Assembly (NCBI GenBank): GCA_964544335.1
Contig: CAZJAJ010000001.1
Span: 29,199-93,198 of the forward strand
Direction of reading: 5' to 3'
From: an uncultured Methanosarcinales archaeon
Lineage (GTDB): Archaea; Nanobdellota; Nanobdellia; Woesearchaeales; JABIAG01
Length of the DNA: 64,000 nt
Shown here: positions 10,147-60,668 of the stretch, in pieces
Numbering within the stretch: the first letter of the stretch is position 1
Layout of the letters: each line of letters starts with the position of its first letter
Program-made: the position numbers and the translations under genes
The notes under the pieces: model-generated
The model's input: only the letters and a program-made list of their open reading frames with translations
Database searches by the model: none
What the model was told of the DNA's origin: nothing

Positions 10147-10309
10147 AACCCATTATTAAAGCTGATGCAAAGATGAATGAAAACACGGTTGTTCCCGTTC
10201 CCATAATTGTTCCCACATTAATGTAGGAGTGAAGAGCAAAAAGCCCTATGACAATAATAAAAAAAGAGAGAAGTGTATTATAGTAGTGCCCTCGAATGTG
10301 TCTACTCAT
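10106..10309 (-). CDS. small membrane protein
   Basis: Two hydrophobic segments. Confidence 0.25.
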   Translation of the reverse strand: MSRHIRGHYYNTLLSFFIIVIGLFALHSYINVGTIMGTGTTVFSFIFASALIMGCVLFHEKERLRHE

Positions 10310-10338
10310 TACTTCTCTCCATATTCTTCAACATATTT

Positions 10339-10713
10339 TTACCGTGTACTTGCAAGGTACCAAATGTGCTTTAGTGCAACAATAATCACTGCAGGTACCG
10401 TAAATACTAAAATTTTACCAAAGATACCAATAAGTAGATCACCAATACTTACACCGGCAACCATGCCAACTGATCGTAGTGCAACATCACTCATACCTAG
10501 TGCAGTTGCAATGATAAGTACTGTTGCGGTAAACAAAAAGTCTCTTGTTTCCTCACCCGTAATATTAACAATTCCTACTATAACGCCAAGAAGTACCAAA
10601 ACTGATGTAAGTACTGCTTGAACAGCTGAAGTAAATGCGCCTGCTGCAAGTCCAAGGACTAGAGCGATAACAACACCAACAGCAAAAGAATAATTTCCTA
10701 ATCGTTCATCCAT
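10339..10713 (-). CDS. membrane protein, hypothetical
   Basis: Four predicted TM helices. Confidence 0.35.
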   Translation of the reverse strand: MDERLGNYSFAVGVVIALVLGLAAGAFTSAVQAVLTSVLVLLGVIVGIVNITGEETRDFLFTATVLIIATALGMSDVALRSVGMVAGVSIGDLLIGIFGKILVFTVPAVIIVALKHIWYLASTR

Positions 10714-36021: not shown

Positions 36022-36625
36022 TTCTTATACCTGCCACAATGCTGATTTTGATGAACACTACCATACCAAATCAGGCGCTATTGAAGAGGCATTTGAAAAG
36101 CATGTGCGTCCTCTTGGTGTTCGTGATGGCATGAAAATACTTGATTTTTGTTTTGGCCTTGGATACAATGGAATTGCTGCGTGTCATAGGCATAAGAATA
36201 TGCATGTGATTGCACTTGAGATTGATCCTAAAATTATTACGATGATGAAAGAGATTGAGCCACCAAAAGAAATAGAAAAAGAGTTTATGTTCTTTAGAAA
36301 CATTGGTGATGAGAAAAAAATGTGTGATGAGAACGGCAATTGTATTGAGCTCATCATGGGTGATGCGATGCAAACCATCAAGGAGTTACCCGCAGAGATA
36401 TTTGATGTGTGTTTCTTTGATCCCTTTTCTCCCCAAAAGCATCCTGAAATGTGGGAAGTAAATGTGTTAGCTCAAGTGTTTCGCGTATTAAAGAAAGGTG
36501 GGAAGCTGAGCACATATTCTTGTGCGCGCCGTGTTCGAGATAATTTACGTGAAGCAGGGTTTGTAGTAACTGATGGTCCTGTTGTGGGTAGACGATCCCC
36601 GAGCACTATTGCTGTGAAAGAATAA
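35915..36625 (+). CDS. SAM-dependent methyltransferase, MnmC-like (DUF752) family
   Basis: ILDFCFGLGYNG SAM-binding motif; FDPFSPQKHPEMWEVNV...GGKLSTYSCARRVRDNLREAGFVV resembles the MnmC methyltransferase domain. The likely start is the internal MKLLK at about 35996. Confidence 0.55.
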   Translation: MLLLRFLVRHCIYSSSTLIKKTRLKSLMKLLKTADNSYTCHNADFDEHYHTKSGAIEEAFEKHVRPLGVRDGMKILDFCFGLGYNGIAACHRHKNMHVIALEIDPKIITMMKEIEPPKEIEKEFMFFRNIGDEKKMCDENGNCIELIMGDAMQTIKELPAEIFDVCFFDPFSPQKHPEMWEVNVLAQVFRVLKKGGKLSTYSCARRVRDNLREAGFVVTDGPVVGRRSPSTIAVKE

Positions 36626-37034
36626 TTGTTCTCATGTGCTCTAGAATGTGAGCAATGGTATTTTGCCGTGATGGAACAACGCTTTGGGTAAGGCCGGTTT
36701 CTTGTGCAAAATGAGAAATATGTGCGAGTCCTTTTTCTACGTCTTCTACAGGAAGGTCATTCATGGCGTTGAGGACAATGGCAACATACCCTTTGATGAT
36801 AACTGACGTTGAGGTTCCTTCAAAGTGCATACGGTTGTTGATTATTTTTCCTGTGATGTATACACCAGAGATGCACCCTTGGACTTTATGTTCTTCTTTG
36901 ATAATGGATTGATCTACTTTGAGATGTTTTCCGTAGTCCACAAGCCACTCAAGTTGCTTTCTTTTGTCCGTAAAGGACGCAAGTGCTTGCTGCATCTTAT
37001 GTAGATAGATTTCTAATTCTTCTATAGATTGCAT
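36606..37034 (-). CDS. sufE: SufE-like sulfur acceptor protein
   Basis: EHKVQGCISGVY...IIKGYVAIVLNAMNDLPVEDV...LTQSVVPSRQNTIAHIL matches SufE. Confidence 0.8.
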   Translation of the reverse strand: MQSIEELEIYLHKMQQALASFTDKRKQLEWLVDYGKHLKVDQSIIKEEHKVQGCISGVYITGKIINNRMHFEGTSTSVIIKGYVAIVLNAMNDLPVEDVEKGLAHISHFAQETGLTQSVVPSRQNTIAHILEHMRTIILSQQ

Positions 37035-37105
37035 GTATTTGTGTATGTGAAGGAGTTTAAGAATGTTTAGTGGTTTTTGTTGTTACTTAATAGTGGTTAA
37101 ATATG

Positions 37106-37324
37106 GAAAGATTTATAATGGCTAATTATAGCTACCACTACGTTAAAACGGATAATTTCACCTTTTTAACCAAAAAGCGATTTGGCGTCGTAATGACGCT
37201 TTCCTCGAATCCGTCATAAGCAGATGAATTTTCTGAAAAAAACAGAAAAAAGCGAGCGGAAACTTCAGATGACAGCGGAAAAGTCATTCTCAGGTTATGC
37301 TGTCAAAAGAAAGTGAATTAAGAA
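37106..37324. repeat. R1 copy a, 219-bp non-coding repeat module
   Basis: 100% identical to 39747-39965; begins with the GAAAGATTTATA core (TATA-like); contains hairpins gcgtc-gtaat-gacgc and gacagc...gctgtc with T-runs on the minus strand. Confidence 0.9.
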
Positions 37325-37689
37325 TTTGATGTGAAAGGGGCAATAAATCCTACTAAAATTCCGATAATGAGCATAAAAACTCCAAACCCTGAACTGATAA
37401 ATATGCCTCCGATAAACGCCAGACCTACAGCAATTAATCCAAGCCAACCTCCTAAAAAATAAGAACCAGCAAGAGATCCTAGAGTTGCAATAATTGGAAT
37501 GAGCCAAAAAGCAAAAGAGTAGATTGGGTCTGGAGATAATTCTTGAATTATAGATGCAAATGCTTTGATAATTTCTGATTCTGGATTAACTCCAACATGA
37601 ATCCATAAACCGCTTAGAAAACCAAATCCTAAAACGAATTCTTGAACAAATGATTTTCCTATATCTTCAGCACCCATTTTATACTCCAA
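37318..37689 (-). CDS. membrane protein, hypothetical (cassette 1)
   Basis: Four TM helices; its 3' end runs 7 bp into R1. Confidence 0.35.
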   Translation of the reverse strand: MEYKMGAEDIGKSFVQEFVLGFGFLSGLWIHVGVNPESEIIKAFASIIQELSPDPIYSFAFWLIPIIATLGSLAGSYFLGGWLGLIAVGLAFIGGIFISSGFGVFMLIIGILVGFIAPFTSNS

Positions 37690-38371
37690 AAAATGATTTA
37701 ATTTTATCCCAAATTGAAGATTTCATCTTTTCGTCTGGATTATAAGAACCATCAAAATATCTTTTCAACAAACCAATTGTTCTATTGTATGCTTTTCTAT
37801 TTTTTGCTAATCTCCTATCAAACATTTTTCTCTGTAAGAAATCATATTCTCTTAGAATTTTACCGCCTTTTAGAAGTGTTGCTCTTACAACAATATGTTT
37901 AAAGTTAGGGTGTGGTTTATTTTTAATGTAGTTTTTAACATGACGAAACTTATCTGGGCTTAATTTCATAGCTACAGTGGAATGAAAGTAATATTTTCTT
38001 TCATAGTCAATTGGTTGAAGTGTACAATAAGGTTGTAGTTTTTTTGACAGGTGCCATCTGAATTCATCTAAATTAGAACTTGGATGTATATCAACATATA
38101 CAACTCTATTTTTCTCAAAAGTGTCGAATCCTTTGACGGTGAATTTCATTAAAGATTGCTTTGAACATATAGAATAAAAATCACTGATTAATTTTCTCTC
38201 ATTATTTGTTTGAAACGGTGCAACCAGAGTAATATGTGGGACTGGTCTTTTCTTCTTAGCATTACCTATTCTGCATCTTTTATCAACTTCCCATATCAGC
38301 TTTTTTAATTCAGATTTTGCTTTTCCTTGAAATCTGAATTCAATTAGATAATGAACCATTTTTCCACGCAT
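37679..38371 (-). CDS. 2H phosphoesterase superfamily protein (LigT/2'-5' RNA ligase-like cyclic phosphodiesterase)
   Basis: Two H-x-T/S-x motifs (PHITLVAPF and YFHSTVAMK) with appropriate spacing. Confidence 0.7.
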   Translation of the reverse strand: MRGKMVHYLIEFRFQGKAKSELKKLIWEVDKRCRIGNAKKKRPVPHITLVAPFQTNNERKLISDFYSICSKQSLMKFTVKGFDTFEKNRVVYVDIHPSSNLDEFRWHLSKKLQPYCTLQPIDYERKYYFHSTVAMKLSPDKFRHVKNYIKNKPHPNFKHIVVRATLLKGGKILREYDFLQRKMFDRRLAKNRKAYNRTIGLLKRYFDGSYNPDEKMKSSIWDKIKSFFGV

Positions 38372-38711
38372 AATATTTTTTTATTATATCTTTAGTGCCT
38401 GTTGAAAGCTTAATTGATTTTTCAGGTAAGTAATAATCTATTCGTTTAACTTCGTGTTTTGGTTTTGGAGTGCCTTTAGCTTTTATCAAAACAACTGTGT
38501 GTTCATGGCTGTGACTTTCATGTCTAAATATTATTTTAGCTTCATTTGCCATTAATCCAGTTTCTTCTTCAAGTTCACGAATTGCTGCTCTAAATCTACT
38601 TTCTCCTTTATCTGCTCCACCACCTGGCAAAAGATAAGTTCCACCCATTGAAGTTAAGAGAATGCCTTTGGATGTTTCAACAATAGCAGTTCCTCTTCTT
38701 CTTTTTGACAT
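38340..38711 (-). CDS. NUDIX hydrolase
   Basis: Nudix box GGGADKGESRFRAAIRELEEETGL. Confidence 0.8.
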   Translation of the reverse strand: MSKRRRGTAIVETSKGILLTSMGGTYLLPGGGADKGESRFRAAIRELEEETGLMANEAKIIFRHESHSHEHTVVLIKAKGTPKPKHEVKRIDYYLPEKSIKLSTGTKDIIKKYYAWKNGSLSN

Positions 38712-38713
38712 TT

Positions 38714-39319
38714 CTAATCCTCAAATAATTTTTTTGAGTCGTATTTTTCTTGGTCTCCTTGATTTATCTGATTTCCAAGACTAAGATATTCTAACTCTTT
38801 GAATCTATGAACCCATGCGACAATATTTCTTGGAAAGATATTTACTCTTTCATTGTATTTTTGAACAACTCTGTTGTATGCTAATCTAAAGTTTCTTAAT
38901 TTTGATTCCATTCTTGAGATGCTTCCACGTCCCATAATACTTTTATGCAACGCATCTGCTTTTAATTTGGGATATCTCTCAAAAACTGCTTGGATTTTAA
39001 GGAATGCATTATCTACTTCTTTGAATGTTTGAGCTTTTTCATTTAATGAAGCGTCTTTTGTCCATCGGCTTCTCGCCTCAATAACATCTTTCAATGCTTT
39101 GTATTCATGAATGTCATATTTTTTGATAACTTGTGCAAGTGCAGGCAACATATCTATTCTTTGTTGCATTAAAACATCAATATCTGCAAATTTCCTCTTC
39201 GCTCTATTTATCCAATATTGAAATTTGTTATAAATTACTATCCATCCTTTTATTAGCCAAATACTTGCTAATATCGCAATGATTCCAATTGCCCATTTGA
39301 TTATTGTTGTTTGATCCAT
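38714..39319 (-). CDS. lemA: LemA family protein
   Basis: N-terminal TM then ...RYPKLKADALHKSIMG...AYNRVVQKYNERVNIFPRNIVA matches LemA. Confidence 0.75.
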   Translation of the reverse strand: MDQTTIIKWAIGIIAILASIWLIKGWIVIYNKFQYWINRAKRKFADIDVLMQQRIDMLPALAQVIKKYDIHEYKALKDVIEARSRWTKDASLNEKAQTFKEVDNAFLKIQAVFERYPKLKADALHKSIMGRGSISRMESKLRNFRLAYNRVVQKYNERVNIFPRNIVAWVHRFKELEYLSLGNQINQGDQEKYDSKKLFED

Positions 39320-39330
39320 GTTAAGTCCTC

Positions 39331-39531
39331 CTAAACAGAGAAATAATCTTTCTCATTGATGTTTTTTGGTTTGACTTCTGCCTTGAAGTAGGTAATCATC
39401 TGTTTAATGGCTTCTTGTTTAGTTTTCAAATTATTGACTAATTTGTATATCTCAACAATTCTATCCTCTTCCGATGATAAATCAATTTGAATTTTAACCA
39501 TTATATATCGCCACGATATATGGAAATACAT
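39331..39531 (-). CDS. small hypothetical protein (66 aa)
   Basis: ORF; first gene of cassette 1. Confidence 0.3.
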   Translation of the reverse strand: MYFHISWRYIMVKIQIDLSSEEDRIVEIYKLVNNLKTKQEAIKQMITYFKAEVKPKNINEKDYFSV

Positions 39532-39556
39532 TGAAATATATAAATCTTTCTGATAA

Positions 39557-39758
39557 AAAAAGAAAAAAAGCGATCGTTACTTCGCTCCTTTTTGCCTACC
39601 ACACCCAAAGTATTCGCCTAAGGATGCTAGGTCTCGTTTCTGCTTAAAACGTCTAAAAGTCCAAAATTCCTTAATTTCAGACTTTTTACTCTTTGGTGGT
39701 TTAGTGACGCTTTTTTGAAAATCCGCCATAACTACTACACAATGACGAAAGATTTATA
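39557..39758. repeat. R2 copy a, ~202-bp non-coding repeat module
   Basis: ~96% identical to 41212-41414 (six substitutions, one 1-nt indel); ends in the GAAAGATTTATA core shared with the R1 start. Confidence 0.85.
39569..39594. terminator. hairpin plus T-run (agcga-tcgttactt-tcgct-cc-ttttt), bidirectional terminator-like element inside R2
   Basis: Perfect 5-bp stem; poly-T on the plus strand and poly-A upstream (T-run on the minus strand). Confidence 0.35.
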
Positions 39759-39965
39759 ATGGCTAATTATAGCTACCACTACGTTAAAACGGATAATTTC
39801 ACCTTTTTAACCAAAAAGCGATTTGGCGTCGTAATGACGCTTTCCTCGAATCCGTCATAAGCAGATGAATTTTCTGAAAAAAACAGAAAAAAGCGAGCGG
39901 AAACTTCAGATGACAGCGGAAAAGTCATTCTCAGGTTATGCTGTCAAAAGAAAGTGAATTAAGAA
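39747..39965. repeat. R1 copy b, 219-bp repeat module
   Basis: Identical to 37106-37324. Confidence 0.9.
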
Positions 39966-40004
39966 AATCTATTAATCGTTGAGAATTCAATTAATAATTT
40001 ACCT

Positions 40005-41174
40005 TCAATAAAAGAATCTTCCGTTAGGAGTAGCATTTGGAGTTGGCTCCTTGATTTTGTGAGCATATGCTTTTACAACATCTTCAAATTCTTTAAAATC
40101 AGTAGTTCTAAAATGTTGTAATGCTTCTTCTAAATCTCCTGTAATTACATAAGGTTCTCCTGTGAAAATAGAATTTTTACAATCTTGTTTTCTTCCCATA
40201 GATGTAAAGATAAAAGGAGCTTCTTCAAAGCCTGGAGCAGATGAAGTCCTATATTCGGCTACATTAACAGAACCACTTCCTCTGAACATTGGTTTTTGCA
40301 TATCAAATTTACTCATGTGCCCTAAAAAATTATTTGAAAAGTATAACATTGGCTTTGTAGATGTTGTGTATGTTCCTTGCATATACAATGAACCATCATC
40401 ATCATCTTTAGCAACACCTAATAGATAAACTTCCTCTTTTGATCCAACATAAACAAAATCTCCATGTTCTAAATCTTTAGTTGCTCTTGTCAACCAATCA
40501 TGTGCAACCCACATATTAAAACTACCATATGAAGGTTTTCTTGAATCACCGTTGCTTTTAAATCTATTAATCAATCCAGTGATCATGTTTCCTTTAGTAA
40601 CCCATTTAGGCATTTCTAAATCAGTACCTCTATTCTCAAGAAATGGAACTACATTTCTTTCGAAATATCCAGGTCTAGTAATCTCTTTTAATTTATCAAC
40701 CAATAAACTTTCATCAGCAATAACAGTTACACCATCAACTGTTTTTTCAACACGACCATCTCCAAATTTGTTTGCTAGAGTTAAATATAGGTCGGTGTGA
40801 CTTTCAGCAGAAGGCAGATACAAACCAAATTCCTGATCAAAATCAAAGTCAAGTCTGTGAGTTCCAAGAATTTCTATTCTTGCTTTAGCAGTAATTCTTT
40901 TTGAGGGATCTTTATGAGTATATGGATCGCCTTCTTGTGGCATCAATATATTCCCTATACACATTATGCTTGTATGTCTATTGGCTCGAACTCTCAATGG
41001 ATCGCTAGAACCAATTTCAGCACCTTCATATTTTAACAGAGAAACAGAATCTCCAAACTGAATCAATATATTTTGTCCTTTTTCTAGAGGTTCAACTACT
41101 TGTTTTACTGGAAGTAGCATATTATCTAAAGATTCAACTTCATTACTATTTGTAGTAGCTAATTGTTCCCCCAT
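40005..41174 (-). CDS. hypothetical protein (389 aa), sole gene of cassette 2
   Basis: Long ORF, no recognised motif. Confidence 0.4.
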   Translation of the reverse strand: MGEQLATTNSNEVESLDNMLLPVKQVVEPLEKGQNILIQFGDSVSLLKYEGAEIGSSDPLRVRANRHTSIMCIGNILMPQEGDPYTHKDPSKRITAKARIEILGTHRLDFDFDQEFGLYLPSAESHTDLYLTLANKFGDGRVEKTVDGVTVIADESLLVDKLKEITRPGYFERNVVPFLENRGTDLEMPKWVTKGNMITGLINRFKSNGDSRKPSYGSFNMWVAHDWLTRATKDLEHGDFVYVGSKEEVYLLGVAKDDDDGSLYMQGTYTTSTKPMLYFSNNFLGHMSKFDMQKPMFRGSGSVNVAEYRTSSAPGFEEAPFIFTSMGRKQDCKNSIFTGEPYVITGDLEEALQHFRTTDFKEFEDVVKAYAHKIKEPTPNATPNGRFFY

Positions 41175-41211
41175 AACTACTTGAAAATAGTATTTATATA
41201 TAAATTTAATT

Positions 41212-41414
41212 AAAAAGAAAAAAAGCGATCGTTACTTCGCTCCTTTTTGCCTGCAACACCCAAAGTATTCGCCTAAGGATGCTTAGGTCTCGTTTCTGCT
41301 TACAACGTCTAAAAGTCCAAAATTCCTTGATTTCAGACTTTTTACTCTTTGGTGGTTTAGTGACGCTTTTTTGAAAATCCGTCATAACTACTACACAATG
41401 ACGAAACATTTATA
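41212..41414. repeat. R2 copy b, ~203-bp repeat module
   Basis: See R2 copy a; ends with the core variant GAAACATTTATA. Confidence 0.85.
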
Positions 41415-42438
41415 TACTCACCCAGCTACACAGGCCATAATGACCGAAAAAAAAGAGTCAAAAATAGTAACATTTCTAGGAGCAGCAGCTCTTGCTACAT
41501 ACATTACAGGAGCACTGTATCACGCCATCAGATCAGAGCCAGATACAAAGCCTAGCAGAATTGAACATATTGTAGAAGAACCTAAAGAAAAAAAGGTAGA
41601 GAATATAGAGGTCTCAGTACCAAAAGCATACGAAGCAGTAAAACATCGTGTAGTTAATGGAAAGATTCCAGTTACAGTAAAGTATGGATATAACAAAGTT
41701 GACCTCCAAATCCCACTTGAAGAATATCTTCAATCAGTTGCTATTTCAACTGCCGAAGGTCCAATGAATGAACACTATGAACAAGTTATTCAGCACGTGT
41801 TTGCTAGTAACTACGATAGTCTTGATCCCCTAGTAAAAGAAATTAAGGGAAGATACTATAGGCGAGACGGATTCGAAGATGCCTCACGCATGTTCTTTAA
41901 TGGCAATAATATTAGATATGTGCTTGACCAAGACAATAGATACAATCAAGACGGTAAAAGAGTACTACGAATGGAACTTCCAAAAACACCTATTCAAACA
42001 CTTGTTGATGGTACTGGAGATTGTGAAGATTTCTCACTTGCACTAGGATATACTCTACACAGAACAGGAAAAGACGTATGTATTGCAACCATGTATAGAA
42101 CAGATGAGAATGGTGAAGTAAAGGGACATACAATCATGGGTCTTGAAGAAGATGCACTAGGTATTGAATACGATGAACTACTTGATCAACTCAATGCCAT
42201 TGGAAGCAATCGAGCAAGAACAAAGAGATATGTTAATTCACACGTTACTGCGCAAACAAGCGATGGACCAATTACCTACAGACTTATTGAACCACAGAGA
42301 GAAAATAAGAAGTGGGAAAGTGATACCATTGGCGACTATGTACTGCAAAGTATCTACATTCCAAAACGAAATGAATGGATAAGGGCAGACCACCTTACTC
42401 GAAAAGACGTTGTGAGTGAACACCGTAAAAACTATTAG
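41371..42438 (+). CDS. transglutaminase-like cysteine protease superfamily protein, membrane-anchored
   Basis: GTGDCEDFSLALGYTLHRTGKDVCIATMY matches the transglutaminase-like core (G.C..F......R..GIpaR); TM helix near the N-terminus. The likely start is the internal MTEKKES at about 41443, outside R2. Confidence 0.6.
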   Translation: MKIRHNYYTMTKHLYTHPATQAIMTEKKESKIVTFLGAAALATYITGALYHAIRSEPDTKPSRIEHIVEEPKEKKVENIEVSVPKAYEAVKHRVVNGKIPVTVKYGYNKVDLQIPLEEYLQSVAISTAEGPMNEHYEQVIQHVFASNYDSLDPLVKEIKGRYYRRDGFEDASRMFFNGNNIRYVLDQDNRYNQDGKRVLRMELPKTPIQTLVDGTGDCEDFSLALGYTLHRTGKDVCIATMYRTDENGEVKGHTIMGLEEDALGIEYDELLDQLNAIGSNRARTKRYVNSHVTAQTSDGPITYRLIEPQRENKKWESDTIGDYVLQSIYIPKRNEWIRADHLTRKDVVSEHRKNY

Positions 42439-42630
42439 ATTTTCTTTCATTTTCTCGTCGATAAAAAGACAGCATATAGAAAAGTATTTAAGCAAGTTCA
42501 TACACATTGCATACACCTGTTTAGCAGACGAAAAAGTCTGCAAGTGGTAAGACGAACAACTCGATCAACGTTTGCTAGGTAGGTAGATTATTCTCTTATG
42601 TTTAGAGCTCCATCATATATGTAGTAGACG

Positions 42631-42861
42631 TTGGTCTTGTACGGAGGCCTTAAATTGGCAGCAAAAAAAACAAGTAAAAAAGCGGTAAAGAAATCAACTA
42701 AAAAAGCAGTGAAGAAAGTTGCTAAAAAAGCAACCAAGAAAGCTGCAAAGAGCGTAGCTAAAAAACCTGCTAAAAAAGCAGTAAAGAAAACAGCAAAGGC
42801 AGCAGCACCTAAAAAGGCTGCTAAGAAAGCTGTAAAAAAGGCGAGCAAAAAGAAACGATGA
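42631..42861 (+). CDS. Lys/Ala-rich basic protein (histone H1 / AlgP-like KKAAKK repeats)
   Basis: 76 aa, about 45% Lys; repeats of KKAVKK/AKKAAK. Confidence 0.5.
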   Translation: MVLYGGLKLAAKKTSKKAVKKSTKKAVKKVAKKATKKAAKSVAKKPAKKAVKKTAKAAAPKKAAKKAVKKASKKKR

Positions 42862-42971
42862 GTGAAGCACTTTACTTTGAAGAAAAAATGATCGGCTTTG
42901 GAACATCCTATGACGACAGCGACGATGATGACGACTGGGATGATGACGATGACGACGACGATTACAATTAA
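42858..42971 (+). CDS. poly-Asp acidic micro-protein (37 aa), translationally coupled
   Basis: Manual translation MSEALYFEEKMIGFGTSYDDSDDDDDWDDDDDDDDYN; its ATG overlaps the stop of the basic protein (ATGA). Confidence 0.35.
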   Translation: MSEALYFEEKMIGFGTSYDDSDDDDDWDDDDDDDDYN

Positions 42972-43026
42972 GAAATAAGGAAGTAAACTAACGTACCTCC
43001 TTGGATCATTTTTTTATTTTTTTTCT

Positions 43027-43767
43027 TTATTGTCTTGGAATAATATATGCAACTTCTTTTCCAAGCACAGTACCTGGCACACGTACTTCATCTGGCACAT
43101 AACCATATTGTTCTAGTTGATCAAACATAGATCTTGCTGCAAACTCAGGATCTATTTCTGAGTACAGGTGTGCAAGTTTTCGAGCAGATTCAACTACTCT
43201 TCTTCTAGTAACATTACAGCAAGGATTAAAAATAAGGTTATCTAATTCGGATTGAATAACATCGCGTTTACCAACCACTTCAATTCCATCTTTTTCTATA
43301 CTTTGAATACCATATTTAGGATGATTAAAATTACATACATAGTCAACATATTGTTTCAGGTTTCCTTGTAGAGTAACTGGCCATCGTTCCCTTGAAGGTC
43401 CTTTCCAATCAAGATATCCTGCACACTTCATTTGCGGAATATATGAGGATAGTTGACTAAAATCTTCATTTACAACATACACTTTTGGAAAAATATCTTC
43501 TAGCTCCTGTAAATCAGGGTGTCGCCACACGCCTTCCCCAGTATGACAGAGAGTAACTCTATCCGTAATAAAACGAGTGAAATGATCAAGTGTAATACGA
43601 GCTCTCACATCATCGGTTTTTTCTTCTTCGCGATCGATATACACTCGAGCAAAATCTCCACGCATATTATTTTCAGGATCATGTAACTCGCTTTCACAAA
43701 TATAACTCATTTGAGTTTTTTTTCCAATACGACAATGATGTAAAAGTACAGTAAATGAAGGGAACAT
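43027..43767 (-). CDS. hypothetical protein, paralog A of a tandem pair
   Basis: Shares the FPKVYVVNEDF...KGPS block with 43813-44505. Confidence 0.35.
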   Translation of the reverse strand: MFPSFTVLLHHCRIGKKTQMSYICESELHDPENNMRGDFARVYIDREEEKTDDVRARITLDHFTRFITDRVTLCHTGEGVWRHPDLQELEDIFPKVYVVNEDFSQLSSYIPQMKCAGYLDWKGPSRERWPVTLQGNLKQYVDYVCNFNHPKYGIQSIEKDGIEVVGKRDVIQSELDNLIFNPCCNVTRRRVVESARKLAHLYSEIDPEFAARSMFDQLEQYGYVPDEVRVPGTVLGKEVAYIIPRQ

Positions 43768-43812
43768 AGCGTGCTGAAAACAAGATGGTATTTAAAAAAT
43801 TAATGGAGAAGA

Positions 43813-44505
43813 TTATTCCATCCAATACGCAAGTTCTTTTTCAATACCAATGGTGCCTTTTTTAGGAACTTCTTTGAGGGTAAATCCCATGTGTTCGAGT
43901 TTTGATTGTACTTGGTGTTCAATACCATCAAGGCATTGCCCTGCACCTTTTTTTATTGACTCATCAGCAATAAGTTCAGGAGTAATATTACTTGTTAAAT
44001 TTGATGTTACTGACTTATACACATGCTCTGCAACAATGTCTGAAAAGACTTCATCAGGAAGGAACATCCCCATATACTGCTCATACTTTTCTACTGAAAG
44101 CCAGTGAGTAAACTCACCTATAAAACACTCAGTCCCGGTTACAGGGCTTGGGCCAGACCAAGTATTTTTCCCATAGGCATTTATTTTTGAAGGTGCATTA
44201 AAAAGATACACATTATTATCAACATTAGAAACAAATACTTTAGGAAAGAGGCGTAATAGATCATTATCATCAGCAGAGCGATACTGAACCGCATCTGCAG
44301 AAAATGCACGTGGAACCATAGCACACTGTTTTGCAAAATAGGTAAAACGACCCATGATAAATCCTAATGGATTGTCATAAAAGAACTTTTCAGGAACACG
44401 ATTTCTAAAGATAAGTAATGGAGTTTTCCTGGCATCATATGCCATTACCGATACCACATCATCTAGCACATGACAATCCAATAATACGCCGTTTTCTTCA
44501 TCCAT
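43813..44505 (-). CDS. hypothetical protein, paralog B of a tandem pair
   Basis: LFPKVFVSNVDN...WSGPSPVTG is similar to the neighbouring gene. Confidence 0.35.
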   Translation of the reverse strand: MDEENGVLLDCHVLDDVVSVMAYDARKTPLLIFRNRVPEKFFYDNPLGFIMGRFTYFAKQCAMVPRAFSADAVQYRSADDNDLLRLFPKVFVSNVDNNVYLFNAPSKINAYGKNTWSGPSPVTGTECFIGEFTHWLSVEKYEQYMGMFLPDEVFSDIVAEHVYKSVTSNLTSNITPELIADESIKKGAGQCLDGIEHQVQSKLEHMGFTLKEVPKKGTIGIEKELAYWME

Positions 44506-58746: not shown

Positions 58747-58968
58747 CTATTCAGAGGTACTATTCTCTTCGCTTGCAGGAAGCCAGTCTAATGCAATGGC
58801 ATGACCAACTAACGCCTTCCCATTACCAAACAGGTTTCCTACCCATGATGAGAATTTAAATAAAAATGTACTTTGATCTGATTTATTGTCTAGATCAAGA
58901 TCATTTGTTTTTACGATTAAAAAACTTCCAATGACAAGGAAGATTAGGATTATTACCCACAGTTTCAT
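58747..58968 (-). CDS. small membrane protein
   Basis: N-terminal TM. Confidence 0.25.
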   Translation of the reverse strand: MKLWVIILIFLVIGSFLIVKTNDLDLDNKSDQSTFLFKFSSWVGNLFGNGKALVGHAIALDWLPASEENSTSE

Positions 58969-59603
58969 TGTACTCCTCCTGAGTTCATGATTTCACGAAC
59001 GTTTCTAAATGATGTTTTTGCAAATTTACGAAAATCTTTACCTGCATCTCGCATACTAATGAGCGTGTCAAAGACATGTGTGCTTCCAAGGGGCAGTTTT
59101 TGCCCTGCAATAATTGAGAGTTCTTGCATTTGTTCAAGTGCAAGTGCACGCGCTATAACTGATGCTGCTGCAACTTCAATGTACTTATCTTCTGCTTTGG
59201 TAACCAGTGTTGCACCAGGAACATCAGCACCCGGATATTGATCTACAATAACCTCTTCATCGGTAAATTCAAGTGATTTAATACATTTATGATGGAGTTT
59301 ATTCAAAACAGCCGTAAGACCAAACTTGTCTACTTCTGTGTTGTACTCTTCCGGGTACATGTTCACAAAGTACACTTTTGCAACATCTTTTACTTTCTTT
59401 GCAAGAATTTTGATTTTTTGATCTGAAAGTTTCTTTGAATCACGAATTCCTAGGTCTTCAAGAGCTTTTCTTTCCGTGTCATCTGCTTTTACTGCTGCAA
59501 CAACTATGCCTCCAAAGGTATCTCCTTTAAGAGATTCGTCCGAACCAATACGCGTTGCCATGAAAATAGTGTGTTTTGTAGGTATATAAGCATTTCGAAT
59601 CAT
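58965..59603 (-). CDS. divergent RNase HII paralog
   Basis: RIGSDESLKGDTFGGIVVAAV...LGIRDSKKLSD...VAAASVIARA collinear with the canonical RNase HII at 60015-60668, but the GRGP loop is replaced by LKGD. Confidence 0.6.
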   Translation of the reverse strand: MIRNAYIPTKHTIFMATRIGSDESLKGDTFGGIVVAAVKADDTERKALEDLGIRDSKKLSDQKIKILAKKVKDVAKVYFVNMYPEEYNTEVDKFGLTAVLNKLHHKCIKSLEFTDEEVIVDQYPGADVPGATLVTKAEDKYIEVAAASVIARALALEQMQELSIIAGQKLPLGSTHVFDTLISMRDAGKDFRKFAKTSFRNVREIMNSGGVQ

Positions 59604-59661: not shown

Positions 59662-60018
59662 ATGATGCTGAGTAATTGGATTAGTTTGTTTAGTAAGACA
59701 CATGACCAAGAGCACGTTTTAGAAGTTTCTAACAATCAAATTAAAGATAGGCTTATTGCAAATGGTGCAATGCAAAAAGGATGGTTTGCAAGTAAAAGGC
59801 TAAGAATGAAATCAACAGATGAAGTAATTAGAGTACTTGATGCTTGTGGTGTAAATATACGAACAGAACACATTATTTTATACGATGGTCACCTTGATAT
59901 TACAAACCACAAAAGCAAAGAGAATGCACTAGATGTAAAGCTAGTACATGATATTCATAATGTGGGACGACTGCACCTTACCGGTGTACAAGATACGCAA
60001 AAACTCTTTAAATTCTAA
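59662..60018 (+). CDS. hypothetical protein
   Basis: ORF between the two RNase HII genes. Confidence 0.3.
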   Translation: MMLSNWISLFSKTHDQEHVLEVSNNQIKDRLIANGAMQKGWFASKRLRMKSTDEVIRVLDACGVNIRTEHIILYDGHLDITNHKSKENALDVKLVHDIHNVGRLHLTGVQDTQKLFKF

Positions 60019-60668
60019 AACGAGTCTAAACTGGTCTGACTCTTCTTTTCTTTCACATTCTTAAACGTAGCCCAAGATTTTCTAATAATATGAGAAACAT
60101 TTGGGTTATCCCAGTGCTCATCTATAAATTTACGGGTGTTGGGGTCTGATGCATACCCTGAACCAAATGCAAGTTTGTGGATTTTGGCAAGTTCTTGCAT
60201 TTTTCTGTCACGAATCACTTTTGCAATAATAGATGCTGCTGCAACAACAGCGTGTTCTTCTGCTTTGTGCTGCACGATGAGTTCTGCTTCGTGGTTGAGA
60301 CGTTTAAAGAGATATTCCTTGTACCCATCAAGATTTCTATCCGGACAATCAATGATCACCTTGCCTGGTGTAAGTGCTTCAATTATTTCAATGGTTTTAT
60401 TGGCTTCAAGTTTATTGAGATTAAGTGTGGAGGATGCAAGTGCATCATCTATTTCTGCAGGATCAATGATCACTACATGATAGTCTTTTACCACTTTAAT
60501 GATACGATCAAAGAGTGCTTCTCTTACTTTTGGTGTGAGATCTTTGCTGTCTTTTACACCAAGTACTTCAAGTTTTGGAAGAAGGGCATCATCTATTACA
60601 ACGCCGCACATGACCAAACTACCAAGCACAGGGCCTCTTCCTGCTTCATCTATACCTGCAAGTAACAT
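60015..60668 (-). CDS. rnhB: ribonuclease HII
   Basis: LAGIDEAGRGPVLGSLVMCGV...GVKDSKDLTPKVRE...AAASIIAKV. Confidence 0.9.
   Translation of the reverse strand: MLLAGIDEAGRGPVLGSLVMCGVVIDDALLPKLEVLGVKDSKDLTPKVREALFDRIIKVVKDYHVVIIDPAEIDDALASSTLNLNKLEANKTIEIIEALTPGKVIIDCPDRNLDGYKEYLFKRLNHEAELIVQHKAEEHAVVAAASIIAKVIRDRKMQELAKIHKLAFGSGYASDPNTRKFIDEHWDNPNVSHIIRKSWATFKNVKEKKSQTSLDSF

Follow-up and report, generated by a model that had tools for sequence, protein, structure and literature searches.

The segment at positions 37106-41414 of the window (the whole 64-kb stretch of DNA analysed here) raises the question of how two unrelated blocks of genes came to stand head to tail between copies of the same two modules. 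The host is a DPANN-type archaeon with a small genome and leaderless mRNAs, and the segment lies where the promoters of sufE and an orphan gene diverge. The first-pass annotation had described the layout as core-R1-cargo1-R2-core-R1-cargo2-R2-core, and the repeats, their identities and their positions all proved to be as it described. The features are as follows.

36606-37034, minus strand: left flank, sufE (Pfam SufE, E=2e-23), chromosomal, with normal GC of 38-43%.
37106-37117, plus strand: core copy 1, BRE/TATA GAAAGATTTATA facing into R1a; 46th percentile of the promoter matrix, no ORF downstream.
37106-37324, minus strand: R1a, 3' module of cassette 1; 100% identical to R1b, with terminator motifs and an R2-like fragment.
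37318-39501, minus strand: cargo 1 operon, assigned with Pfam; GC 30-33%, counterpart in contig L019.
39539-39550, minus strand: predicted cargo 1 promoter, the fourth exact 12-mer; matrix score at the 100th percentile.
39557-39758, minus strand: R2a, 5' module of cassette 1; a repeat with terminators, an outward BRE/TATA and a 50-aa ORF.
39747-39965, minus strand: R1b, 3' module of cassette 2, joined to R2a through a 12-bp overlap.
40005-41174, minus strand: cargo 2, encoding a conserved 389-aa protein whose function is unknown; promoter of its own at about 41196-41211.
41212-41414, minus strand: R2b, 5' module of cassette 2; ORF frameshifted, outward GAAACATTTATA at 41403-41414 at the 100th percentile.
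41440-42438, plus strand: right flank, a leaderless 332-aa orphan gene, with a TATA box at the R2b edge 25 nt before its ATG.

By self-BLAST, R1 and R2 are the only long repeats in the whole window. The R1 copies (37106-37324 and 39747-39965) are 219 nt long and 100% identical (blastn E about 1e-110), and the R2 copies (39557-39758 and 41212-41414; 203 nt) are 96.5% identical, differing by six substitutions and one 1-nt indel (E about 1e-91). At the middle junction R1 and R2 overlap by exactly the 12-bp core, which recurs as a direct repeat at the outer ends and the inner junction (12/12 at 37106, 12/12 at 39747 and 11/12 at 41403), and the claim that the same 12-bp sequence marks every boundary therefore holds for these three copies. 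GAAAGATTTATA is exact at 37106 and 39747, and the copy at 41403 reads GAAACATTTATA. The array is made up of two head-to-tail minus-strand units of 1.7 and 2.6 kb, which share one architecture, with R2 as the 5' module followed by the cargo's own promoter and gene(s) and then by R1 as the 3' module. The cargo blocks themselves are unrelated to each other.

The position of the 12-bp core at each boundary had suggested a dedicated recombination sequence. We scored the core against a promoter matrix built from 26 other genes (consensus AAAACATTTATATA); TATA motifs peak 26-30 nt ahead of start codons. The core matches the purine-rich BRE and TTTAWA TATA box consensus of the same genome, and on the evidence of its sequence it is the BRE/TATA promoter consensus of this archaeon. 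The R2b core and the copy directly upstream of cargo 1 (minus strand, 39539-39550, a fourth exact GAAAGATTTATA) both score at the 100th percentile, with 30 of the 128,000 14-mers in the window scoring as high, and the R1/R2a core scores at the 46th. Including a one-mismatch copy at 1361, the window contains five matches to the 12-mer in all versus 0.99 expected. No ORF lies downstream of the copies that point into R1, and a T5 run follows them after about 45 nt. The idea of a dedicated recombination sequence thus gives way to a generic BRE/TATA consensus, the fourth exact copy of which is the predicted promoter of cargo 1. Finding such a strong, generic promoter at all the boundaries could be a matter of function and need not be a trace of recombination.

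Within R2a, positions 39563-39592 form a bidirectional hairpin terminator, the central block is invariant and GACGCTTTTTTG at 39705-39716 is a plus-strand terminator, so that terminators serve both strands. The BRE lies within the module and the TATA box at its very edge (39747-39758 in R2a), pointing outward as a top-scoring promoter. Seven R2 variants were found in data equivalent to about 15 billion proteins, and five of these, beyond the two copies here, occur in other metagenomes at 71-95% identity. Copies in contigs L010-L018 are 94.6%, 86% and 83.7% identical, and the flanks of these contigs match nothing in the window. In every context the similarity begins at the TATA edge, and in the three other sequenced contexts R2 keeps a constant orientation towards a downstream cargo, the cargos being unrelated. 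The neighbouring ATG follows the R2 TATA box by 24-25 nt in four of four contexts, namely 25 nt from the R2b core to the orphan gene and 24 nt in L011, L015 and L018, where the three neighbours are unrelated. The 12-mer belongs to the conserved R2 in L011 and L018, and in L015 it carries two changes. No flanking duplications were found around R2 in the other contexts. As judged from these comparisons, R2 is a discrete portable module, and the outward BRE/TATA at its edge is predicted to supply a promoter to any leaderless gene 24-25 nt beyond it. The orphan gene of the right flank is apparently driven in this way by the promoter at the R2b edge.

Could R2 instead be an ordinary conserved small gene of the clade, encoding a small RNA or a 50-aa basic protein, that was locally duplicated and seems sharp-edged through poor synteny? 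Its conservation does span the TATA box to the hairpin and T-run, like a self-contained transcription unit, and the 50-aa ORF of R2a (39577-39729) has full-length homologs at 74-92% identity. We nevertheless rejected a small protein under purifying selection: pN/pS is 0.5-1.3, substitutions are spread evenly over codon positions, R2a and the L011 ORF differ by 0 synonymous and 10 nonsynonymous changes, and the ORF is intact in three of the seven variants and frameshifted or interrupted in four. For an RNA gene, neither R2 nor R1 has a relevant Rfam match even at E<=10, and 2/60 predicted pairs in the R2 fold are compensatory (covariation term +2.1), from five sequences and hence with low power. 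The BRE orientation also favours outward transcription (sense-side score 0.5), and an ordinary gene leaves R1 and the interleaved layout unexplained. We consider this explanation improbable.

R1 was seen only in this lineage and was not found adjoining R2 in any other setting. Read in the direction of the cargo, R1a comprises a hairpin (37271-37304) followed by two CGCTTTTT oligo-T terminators (37247-37254 and 37172-37179). Next comes a stretch resembling R2's 5' part in degenerate form (37154-37219), and the local R1/R2 homology score of 41 compares with a maximum of 38 in 1000 dinucleotide shuffles. Because R2 has terminators for both strands and R1 has two in the cargo direction, the modules are predicted to insulate the cargo transcriptionally. 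The proposal that R2 acts as promoter/leader and R1 as terminator of each cassette largely survives as a statement about function, R2 carrying its outward promoter and R1 its two terminators, and fails where it was tied to an integron.

The cargo and its surroundings differ in composition. The island has a GC content of 30-34% versus 36-43% in the flanks, and no relatives of the flanks were found. By Pfam, the cargo 1 operon encodes a small 56-aa protein, LemA (201 aa), a NUDIX protein (123 aa), a 2H/LigT-type phosphoesterase (230 aa) and a 119-123-aa membrane protein; PHROGs and PADLOC gave weak matches. Its stop codon falls inside R1a, and L019 carries the operon together with the start of R1 at 95.5% identity. 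Homologs of cargo 2 (69-81% identity) occur in unrelated contexts that have neither R1 nor R2, and both cargos have their own BRE/TATA promoter. A search of 5.8 billion proteins with the orphan-gene protein recovered only itself.

Taken as a whole, the best explanation is that 37106-41414 is a 4.3-kb foreign low-GC island composed of two cassettes, themselves non-autonomous, that came to be stacked when they recombined at the promoter core, a reading to which we give slightly less than even confidence. Cassettes with common left and right ends, as the first-pass annotation proposed, are supported by the sharp edge of R2 before different cargo elsewhere and by the low GC of the island. There is also a precedent in a related genome, where contig L005 holds tandem inserts that lack an integrase and lie between direct repeats, 138-208 nt long, of the 3' end of the target gene. 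The sample for the cassette model is the two units seen here. Stacking would be a tandem accretion of small non-autonomous units by recombination at the shared core, most simply by way of a circular form with R2-core-R1 as its closing junction. Catalysis could come from a recombinase encoded elsewhere; alternatively, a one-time short-homology joining could have been followed by spread through homologous recombination between the ~200-bp modules. Insertion at a TATA box would leave the neighbouring gene unsilenced because the R2 end restores its promoter.

A serious rival, unlikely in our view but well ahead of the others, dispenses with dedicated mobility. R1 and R2 would then be regulatory or insulator modules (promoter and terminators, perhaps a small RNA) that happen to give ~200 bp of portable homology, and host homologous recombination or short-homology joining at the 12-bp motif would swap, duplicate and stack accessory genes between related strains. 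The array could be a one-off unequal exchange between the alleles R1-C1-R2 and R1-C2-R2 (C1 and C2 being the two cargos), with the 12-bp overlap as the residue of short-homology joining. The generic nature of the core fits this account, as do the lack of a recombinase in the window and the C1-R1 adjacency kept in the 95.5% identical strain. The cargo-side boundary of R2 also varies, in that similarity stops at the T-run in the window copies and 84 nt further on in the Bro-N contexts. Between L011 and L015 this 84-nt spacer to the cargo ATG is about 97% identical, R2 itself is 78-86% identical, and beyond the ATG similarity collapses and the proteins barely align, a pattern that also speaks for swapping of cargo at module edges under the cassette model. 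Because the cargo-side edge differs between contexts, mosaic homologous exchange fits as well as site-specific events. However, the one-off exchange needs two different alleles in one cell and a crossover on only 12 bp, and the rival does not explain why the same TATA edge of R2 stands beside five unrelated neighbours (three contig genes, the orphan gene and R1b) or why the R2 body is conserved well past the needs of a promoter and terminators.

The assembly bears on whether the stacked cassettes of our preferred reading are truly adjacent. Short-read contigs obtained independently (Logan) stop precisely where the repeats begin and end. Since the R1a and R1b copies, identical at 100%, may represent one collapsed graph node traversed twice, their identity does not date the duplication. 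A k-mer assembler cannot make the R2a-R1b junction from a 12-bp overlap, and the junction is therefore taken as real, in either a chromosomal tandem or a circular form. The latter form would make the tandem only apparent: the chromosome would read sufE-R1-C2-R2b-orphan gene, and a separate 2,641-bp circle, R1-C1-R2a closed at the core, would have been threaded into it by the assembler via the collapsed R1 node. The contrast between identical R1 copies and R2 copies that differ at seven positions is what a twice-used R1 node would produce. In SRR15635848, contigs pass from sufE through all of R1 without the breaks expected of the C1-R2a unit, and the 41 nt common to R2a and R2b are also passed unbroken, whereas two other samples do break; those short-read assemblies have no record of the exact LemA of cargo 1. 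These patterns hint that the C1-R2a unit is polymorphic between samples, as read from contig ends only, after graph cleaning. That same basis weakens the separate-circle explanation, and a circle of 2.6 kb that lacks a replication gene would probably not maintain itself alone; we give it little credence. If true, it would strengthen the cassette model, as the circle is the predicted circular intermediate.

Of the seven ORFs in the two cargo segments (six genes and the small one of R2a), none has a match among integrase or transposase families, which bears out the statement that no such gene lies inside. The same search was negative for roughly 33 other window proteins scanned, and Phage_integrase has no match among about 40 proteins of the 64-kb window. 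A transposon or MITE was considered and rejected: the outer ends of R1 and R2 do not form inverted repeats, the 12-mer belongs to conserved R2 sequence, no duplications flank R2 in other contexts and there is no transposase. An integron-like array, with cassettes captured at attC-type sites by an integron integrase, would account for same-orientation cassettes with a conserved element between them, and integrons are reported in Archaea (PMC9668308). However, no inverted repeat spans the junctions, where single-strand DNA folds reach z -1.0 to -1.75 and -9 to -14 kcal/mol; the junction element is 410 bp rather than the 57-141 bp of attC; each cargo has its own promoter; and the window encodes no IntI. 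The integron analogy accordingly falls, and we regard such an array as extremely improbable.

The cassette reading may point to portable gene cassettes that are small and possibly of a new kind. A stronger version, which we regard as doubtful, is an undescribed class of miniature non-autonomous archaeal cassettes that would integrate into the TATA boxes of leaderless genes, insulate themselves and use a recombinase in trans, with the ~200-bp modules as arm sites. If this is true, DPANN archaea could add accessory or defence genes, stack them and exchange them with one another, leaving the neighbouring genes undisturbed. The insulation would be carried along, as an outward BRE/TATA restoring the interrupted promoter and terminators for both strands.

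Among known systems, the closest parallels are elements that accrete in tandem without an integrase (PMC5704250). Like the CIME-type elements beside ICEs and IMEs in Streptococcus described there, the units are small, lack recombination genes and lie head to tail at one site between att-type direct repeats, with a complete 'attP-like' site (R2-core-R1) at the inner junction and half sites at the outer ends. Unlike those elements, they reside in an archaeon and are only 1.7 and 2.6 kb long, their junction repeat is a BRE/TATA promoter where those elements have a tRNA-gene or protein-gene 3' end, their ~200-bp conserved arms carry promoters and terminators, and no helper element or integrase was found in the window. 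Archaeal integrated elements are known with att sites down to 8 bp, intergenic targets and tandem arrays (PMC6563490). The island resembles those of Thaumarchaeota in its intergenic target, tandem arrangement, foreign composition and a 12-bp repeat within their att range of 8-69 bp, but they encode an integrase or casposase and extend over many kilobases, whereas the island has neither gene and ends in shared modules, not only short att sites. As in integron cassette arrays, above all chromosomal ones with near-identical attC sites (archaeal integrons: PMC9668308), different genes in one orientation are separated by a conserved repeat and the cassettes lack a recombinase; unlike them, the island has no attC hairpin, IntI or common Pc, and any recombination would have taken place midway along a non-palindromic element of 410 bp. 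Insertion sequences and MITEs with outward-facing promoters are likewise short portable DNAs that bring a promoter to an adjacent gene, but the island has no terminal inverted repeats or transposase, and its 12-mer is part of a conserved module rather than a target-site duplication. Prophage e14 and phage 21 integrate into the icd gene and carry a replacement gene end, and L005 of the relative has the same footprint. Although the island has no integrase and restores a promoter rather than a coding 3' end, it shares with these prophages the property that the element restores what its insertion would destroy, here the BRE/TATA of the neighbour, which the R2 end places 24-25 nt from the ATG.

The repeat architecture described in the first-pass annotation was borne out. 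The module R1 is present as two copies of 219 nt that are 100% identical (R1a and R1b), and R2 as two copies (R2a and R2b) that align over 203 nt with 96.5% identity, differing by six substitutions and one 1-nt indel. According to self-BLAST, R1 and R2 are the only long repeats in the 64-kb window.

37106-37324: R1a
39539-39550, minus strand: 12-mer, directly upstream of cargo 1
39557-39758: R2a
39747-39965: R1b
41212-41414: R2b

The 12-bp core motif also lies where it had been placed: GAAAGATTTATA opens R1a and sits at the R2a/R1b junction, where it constitutes exactly the 12 bp by which R2 and R1 overlap, and the variant GAAACATTTATA closes R2b. The 12-mer upstream of cargo 1 is a fourth exact copy that the earlier reading had missed. 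An alternative core within the modules, TTATGACGGATT, is common to R1 and R2b, and was rejected as the recombination core because it fails to reproduce the middle junction. Short-read contigs from public runs match the window with 100% identity and end exactly at repeat boundaries. We take the R2a–R1b junction to be real because a k-mer assembler is unable to create it from a 12-bp overlap; the perfect identity of R1a and R1b may reflect an assembler passing twice through one collapsed node.

The proposal that the 12-mer is a dedicated recombination core did not hold. Most genes in the window are preceded by a purine-rich BRE and a TTTAWA box, with a TATA motif peak 26–30 nt before the ATG, therefore indicating leaderless mRNAs. 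A position matrix derived from 26 promoters elsewhere in the window yields the consensus AAAACATTTATATA. At the top of the matrix score distribution stand the R2b core (GAAACATTTATATA) and the cargo-1 copy, with the R1/R2a copy in mid-range, and the R2b core is 25 nt from the ATG of the right-flank gene. Given this match and this spacing, the 12-mer is the genome's standard BRE/TATA element. Such an element could still serve as a short homology or an att core; att sites down to 8 bp, intergenic targets and tandem integrations are all documented in archaea (PMC6563490).

The window is ordinary archaeal chromosomal DNA with a GC content of 37.5%, whose genes include GatD, diphthamide synthase, Gins51, an S-layer protein, MetRS and GrpE-DnaK-DnaJ. 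Within it, the stretch from R1a to R2b forms a compositional island (GC 30–34% versus 36–43% in the flanks), flanked on the left by sufE. Cargo 1, on the minus strand, is an operon encoding a small protein, LemA, a NUDIX hydrolase, a 2H/LigT-type phosphoesterase and a small membrane protein. Cargo 2 encodes one conserved protein of 389 aa and unknown function, for which a structure search found no fold relative. As originally stated, there is no integrase or transposase inside the array, and none was found among the ~40 proteins scanned across the window; a weak integrase-like tblastn match at 10286-10372 is low-complexity noise. The 332-aa gene on the right flank has no homolog among 5.8 billion proteins, and a synteny search of species-representative genomes, using the methyltransferase adjoining sufE, returned no relatives. 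Further features lie to the right of the island:

42631-42861, plus strand: 76-aa lysine/alanine-rich ORF whose AKKA/VKKx units repeat with a 12-nt period, close to the island's right end
43027-43767 and 43813-44505, minus strand: adjacent distant paralogs (24% identity, E=2e-5) with no Pfam match
58965-59603 and 60015-60668, minus strand: two RNase HII-family genes with ~400 bp between them and a small plus-strand ORF in the gap

The lysine/alanine-rich ORF resembles a histone-H1-like or nucleoid protein. The paralog pair (43027-44505), together with the 332-aa orphan gene, suggests that the whole sufE-to-grpE stretch is a variable region.

Both modules are rich in predicted transcription signals. 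The BRE of R2 (CGAAAS) is internal to the module and the TATA is at the edge; the well-scoring predicted promoter therefore fires outward, and in the sense direction the promoter score is poor. At the cargo-side end of R2, a hairpin between A- and T-runs can be read as a terminator in either direction, and a second predicted terminator on the plus strand, CGCTTTTTT, precedes the outward promoter. The window has 10 copies of the 8-mer AAAAAGCG (CGCTTTTT on the transcribed strand), where 3.1 are expected, and eight of these copies are inside the modules:

37172, 37247, 39565, 39708, 39813, 39888, 41220 and 41364: copies of AAAAAGCG within R1 and R2

Judged from their sequence, these 8-mers are putative GC-clamped oligo-T terminators, and could also be protein-binding sites. 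In the cargo direction, R1 contains two predicted terminators of the AAAAAGCG type and a hairpin.

There is no sign that the R2 ORF is a protein under purifying selection. Substitutions are spread evenly over codon positions (pN/pS 0.5–1.3), R2a differs from a copy in another metagenome (contig L011) by ten nonsynonymous and no synonymous changes, and the ORF is frameshifted, interrupted or altered in four of seven variants. Nor do the modules match a known RNA family: Rfam searches (gathering thresholds for the whole window, E<=10 for the locus) and a tRNA search found nothing in R1 or R2. Covariation gave no support for an R2 RNA fold, with little power at n=5 sequences, and single-sequence folds of both strands of R1 and R2 have z-scores of -1.0 to -1.9. 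Within R1, R2 positions 27-85 recur in degenerate form and with the orientation unchanged (local score 41, versus a maximum of 38 in 1000 dinucleotide shuffles). Homology of R1 and R2 is only suggestive because this local alignment is its sole support; an nhmmer search with an R2 profile did not detect R1. When R1 and R2 were compared by tblastx with the window and with every locus, neither matched a gene of which it could duplicate the end.

R2 recurs in unrelated surroundings. The 50-aa ORF of R2a has a handful of homologs, and their contigs, from other metagenomes, match R2 DNA with identities of 94.6% (L010–L014), 86% (L015–L017) and 83.7% (L018); four distinct sequenced copies from other contexts are 84–95% conserved. 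Beyond R2, these contigs share nothing with the window. Contigs with R2 come from ERZ24794647/8, ERR13319652, SRR22315505 and JGI 3300042991, among others. The similarity opens at the same TATA edge in every context and, in the window copies, stops at the T-run. Past the TATA edge lies an unrelated gene each time (272, 101 and 202 aa, and the orphan gene in the window), diverging from R2 with its ATG 24–25 nt from the TATA. The other side of R2 faces a downstream cargo in all contexts; elsewhere this cargo is either of two barely alignable Bro-N-domain proteins (L011:2081-2914 and L015:9140-9985), the former type matching the PADLOC candidate defence family PDC-S13 (E=1e-124) and PHROG 15286 (E=3e-100). 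The 84-nt spacer that separates the R2 terminator from the cargo ATG is ~97% identical in L011 and L015; directly past the start codon, the similarity breaks down. This conserved non-coding stretch thus behaves as a fixed platform at whose edges genes are exchanged.

R1 has a narrower distribution. Outside the window it was seen only as a partial copy in a strain with 95.5% identity, there too behind cargo 1, and copies of R2 in other contexts have no R1 beside them. No R1- or R2-like DNA is present next to the cargo-2 homologs (L005–L009) or downstream of the Bro-N genes. Scans with DNA patterns of the R1 and R2 ends, and with a gapped R2 pattern in viral contigs, gave no matches. The gapped pattern and an R2 peptide profile had no confirmed match in JGI metagenome contigs, and the profile none in viral contigs. 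The R2–R1 junction was not matched by blastn in phage and plasmid records, exact look-ups found neither the two R2 ORFs nor the cargo-1 LemA on record in public assemblies, and a degenerate 54-mer fitting both R1 and R2 had no match in species-representative genomes, a collection without the source genome.

Our leading, though tentative, reading is that recombination at a promoter core stacked two small non-autonomous cassettes with shared insulating end modules. On this view two circles, each with R2-core-R1 as its closing junction, would have recombined successively with a promoter core between sufE and the orphan gene, which would leave the footprint core-R1-C1-R2-core-R1-C2-R2-core (C1 and C2, cargos 1 and 2). 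We favour this reading because the island is of foreign composition, R2 breaks at the TATA edge beside unrelated neighbours, cargo is exchanged at the module edges and the R2 end restores the neighbour's promoter. The interpretation first offered is partly supported: the idea of shared-end cassettes gains from foreign GC, the R2 edge and cargo exchange, and an integron-type array does not stand. The core is a generic promoter, the cargo-side edge of R2 varies and the conserved block is a mosaic, as homologous exchange would give; these observations speak against a dedicated mechanism and for homology and host recombination only, a serious but somewhat less likely rival. That the array represents a genuinely new promoter-targeting cassette system is doubtful.

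Short-read contigs of the window from three runs (L001–L004; window 36210-37324 and 39936-43605) end at differing places in R1 and R2. SRR15635848 has a break neither 30 nt into R1 nor within the 41 nt common to R2a and R2b; SRR15635857 and SRR15635858 break at both. This pattern suggests that the population is polymorphic for the C1-R2a unit or that the unit is a separate circle, and that it is absent or rare in SRR15635848 and present in the other two runs. These contig ends would fit a unit gained or lost as well as one in circular form; that the tandem arose from a circular form of the unit threaded in by assembly is improbable.

The genomes of DPANN archaea are tiny and change fast, and little is understood of the ways in which accessory and defence genes are gained and exchanged by them. 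A cassette that targets promoters and brings along promoter repair and terminators, if real, would be a compact means of gene insertion where intergenic space is almost nil, and a natural 'insulated expression cassette' design. Under the conservative reading, portable homology with host recombination, conserved non-coding modules still mark gene-exchange break points. From its sequence conservation, 84–95% in DNA without protein-level constraint, the well-delimited R2 module is a candidate for a new functional non-coding element.

Among known systems, the array is not an integron, because an attC-like palindrome is missing, the element at the junction measures 410 bp, both cargos have promoters of their own and no IntI occurs among the window proteins scanned. 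A MITE or IS was also rejected: there are no terminal inverted repeats, and the 12-mer belongs to the conserved module and is not a target duplication. One cargo-2 homolog contig (L007:1628-2695) has a Fic-domain gene between two 63-nt direct repeats, 83% identical, each of which ends in 10-nt inverted termini (GGTGACYACA...TGTAGTCACC) and contains a TATA-like box; they may represent a different type of repeated module between genes, likewise placed around an accessory gene.

A close relative, GCA_003358065.1 (L005), for which we found no papers mentioning the accession, carries an 81% cargo-2 homolog. At L005:1747-6400, a 625-aa helicase-like ORF has its 3' end repeated in three ~208-nt copies and a 76-nt partial one, 78–92% identical; between them lie small inserts that are unrelated, namely a 129-aa gene and an AAA_14/DUF4143 ATPase. 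Public gene calls miss this ORF, having called the wrong strand. At L005:11621-13916, the 3' end of a radical-SAM gene recurs as a 138-nt copy at a distance of 1450 nt, with an 81-aa gene and a DUF2238 gene in between. The L005 repeats are a classic tandem integration footprint with no integrase inside, and show that tandem pile-up of integrase-less inserts occurs in this lineage. In bacteria, tandem stacking of integrase-less elements is the CIME/accretion pattern (PMC5704250). We place the array with such tandem integrase-less integrated elements, as a variant; the R2 end restores the neighbour's promoter much as some other elements restore the end of a gene into which they insert.
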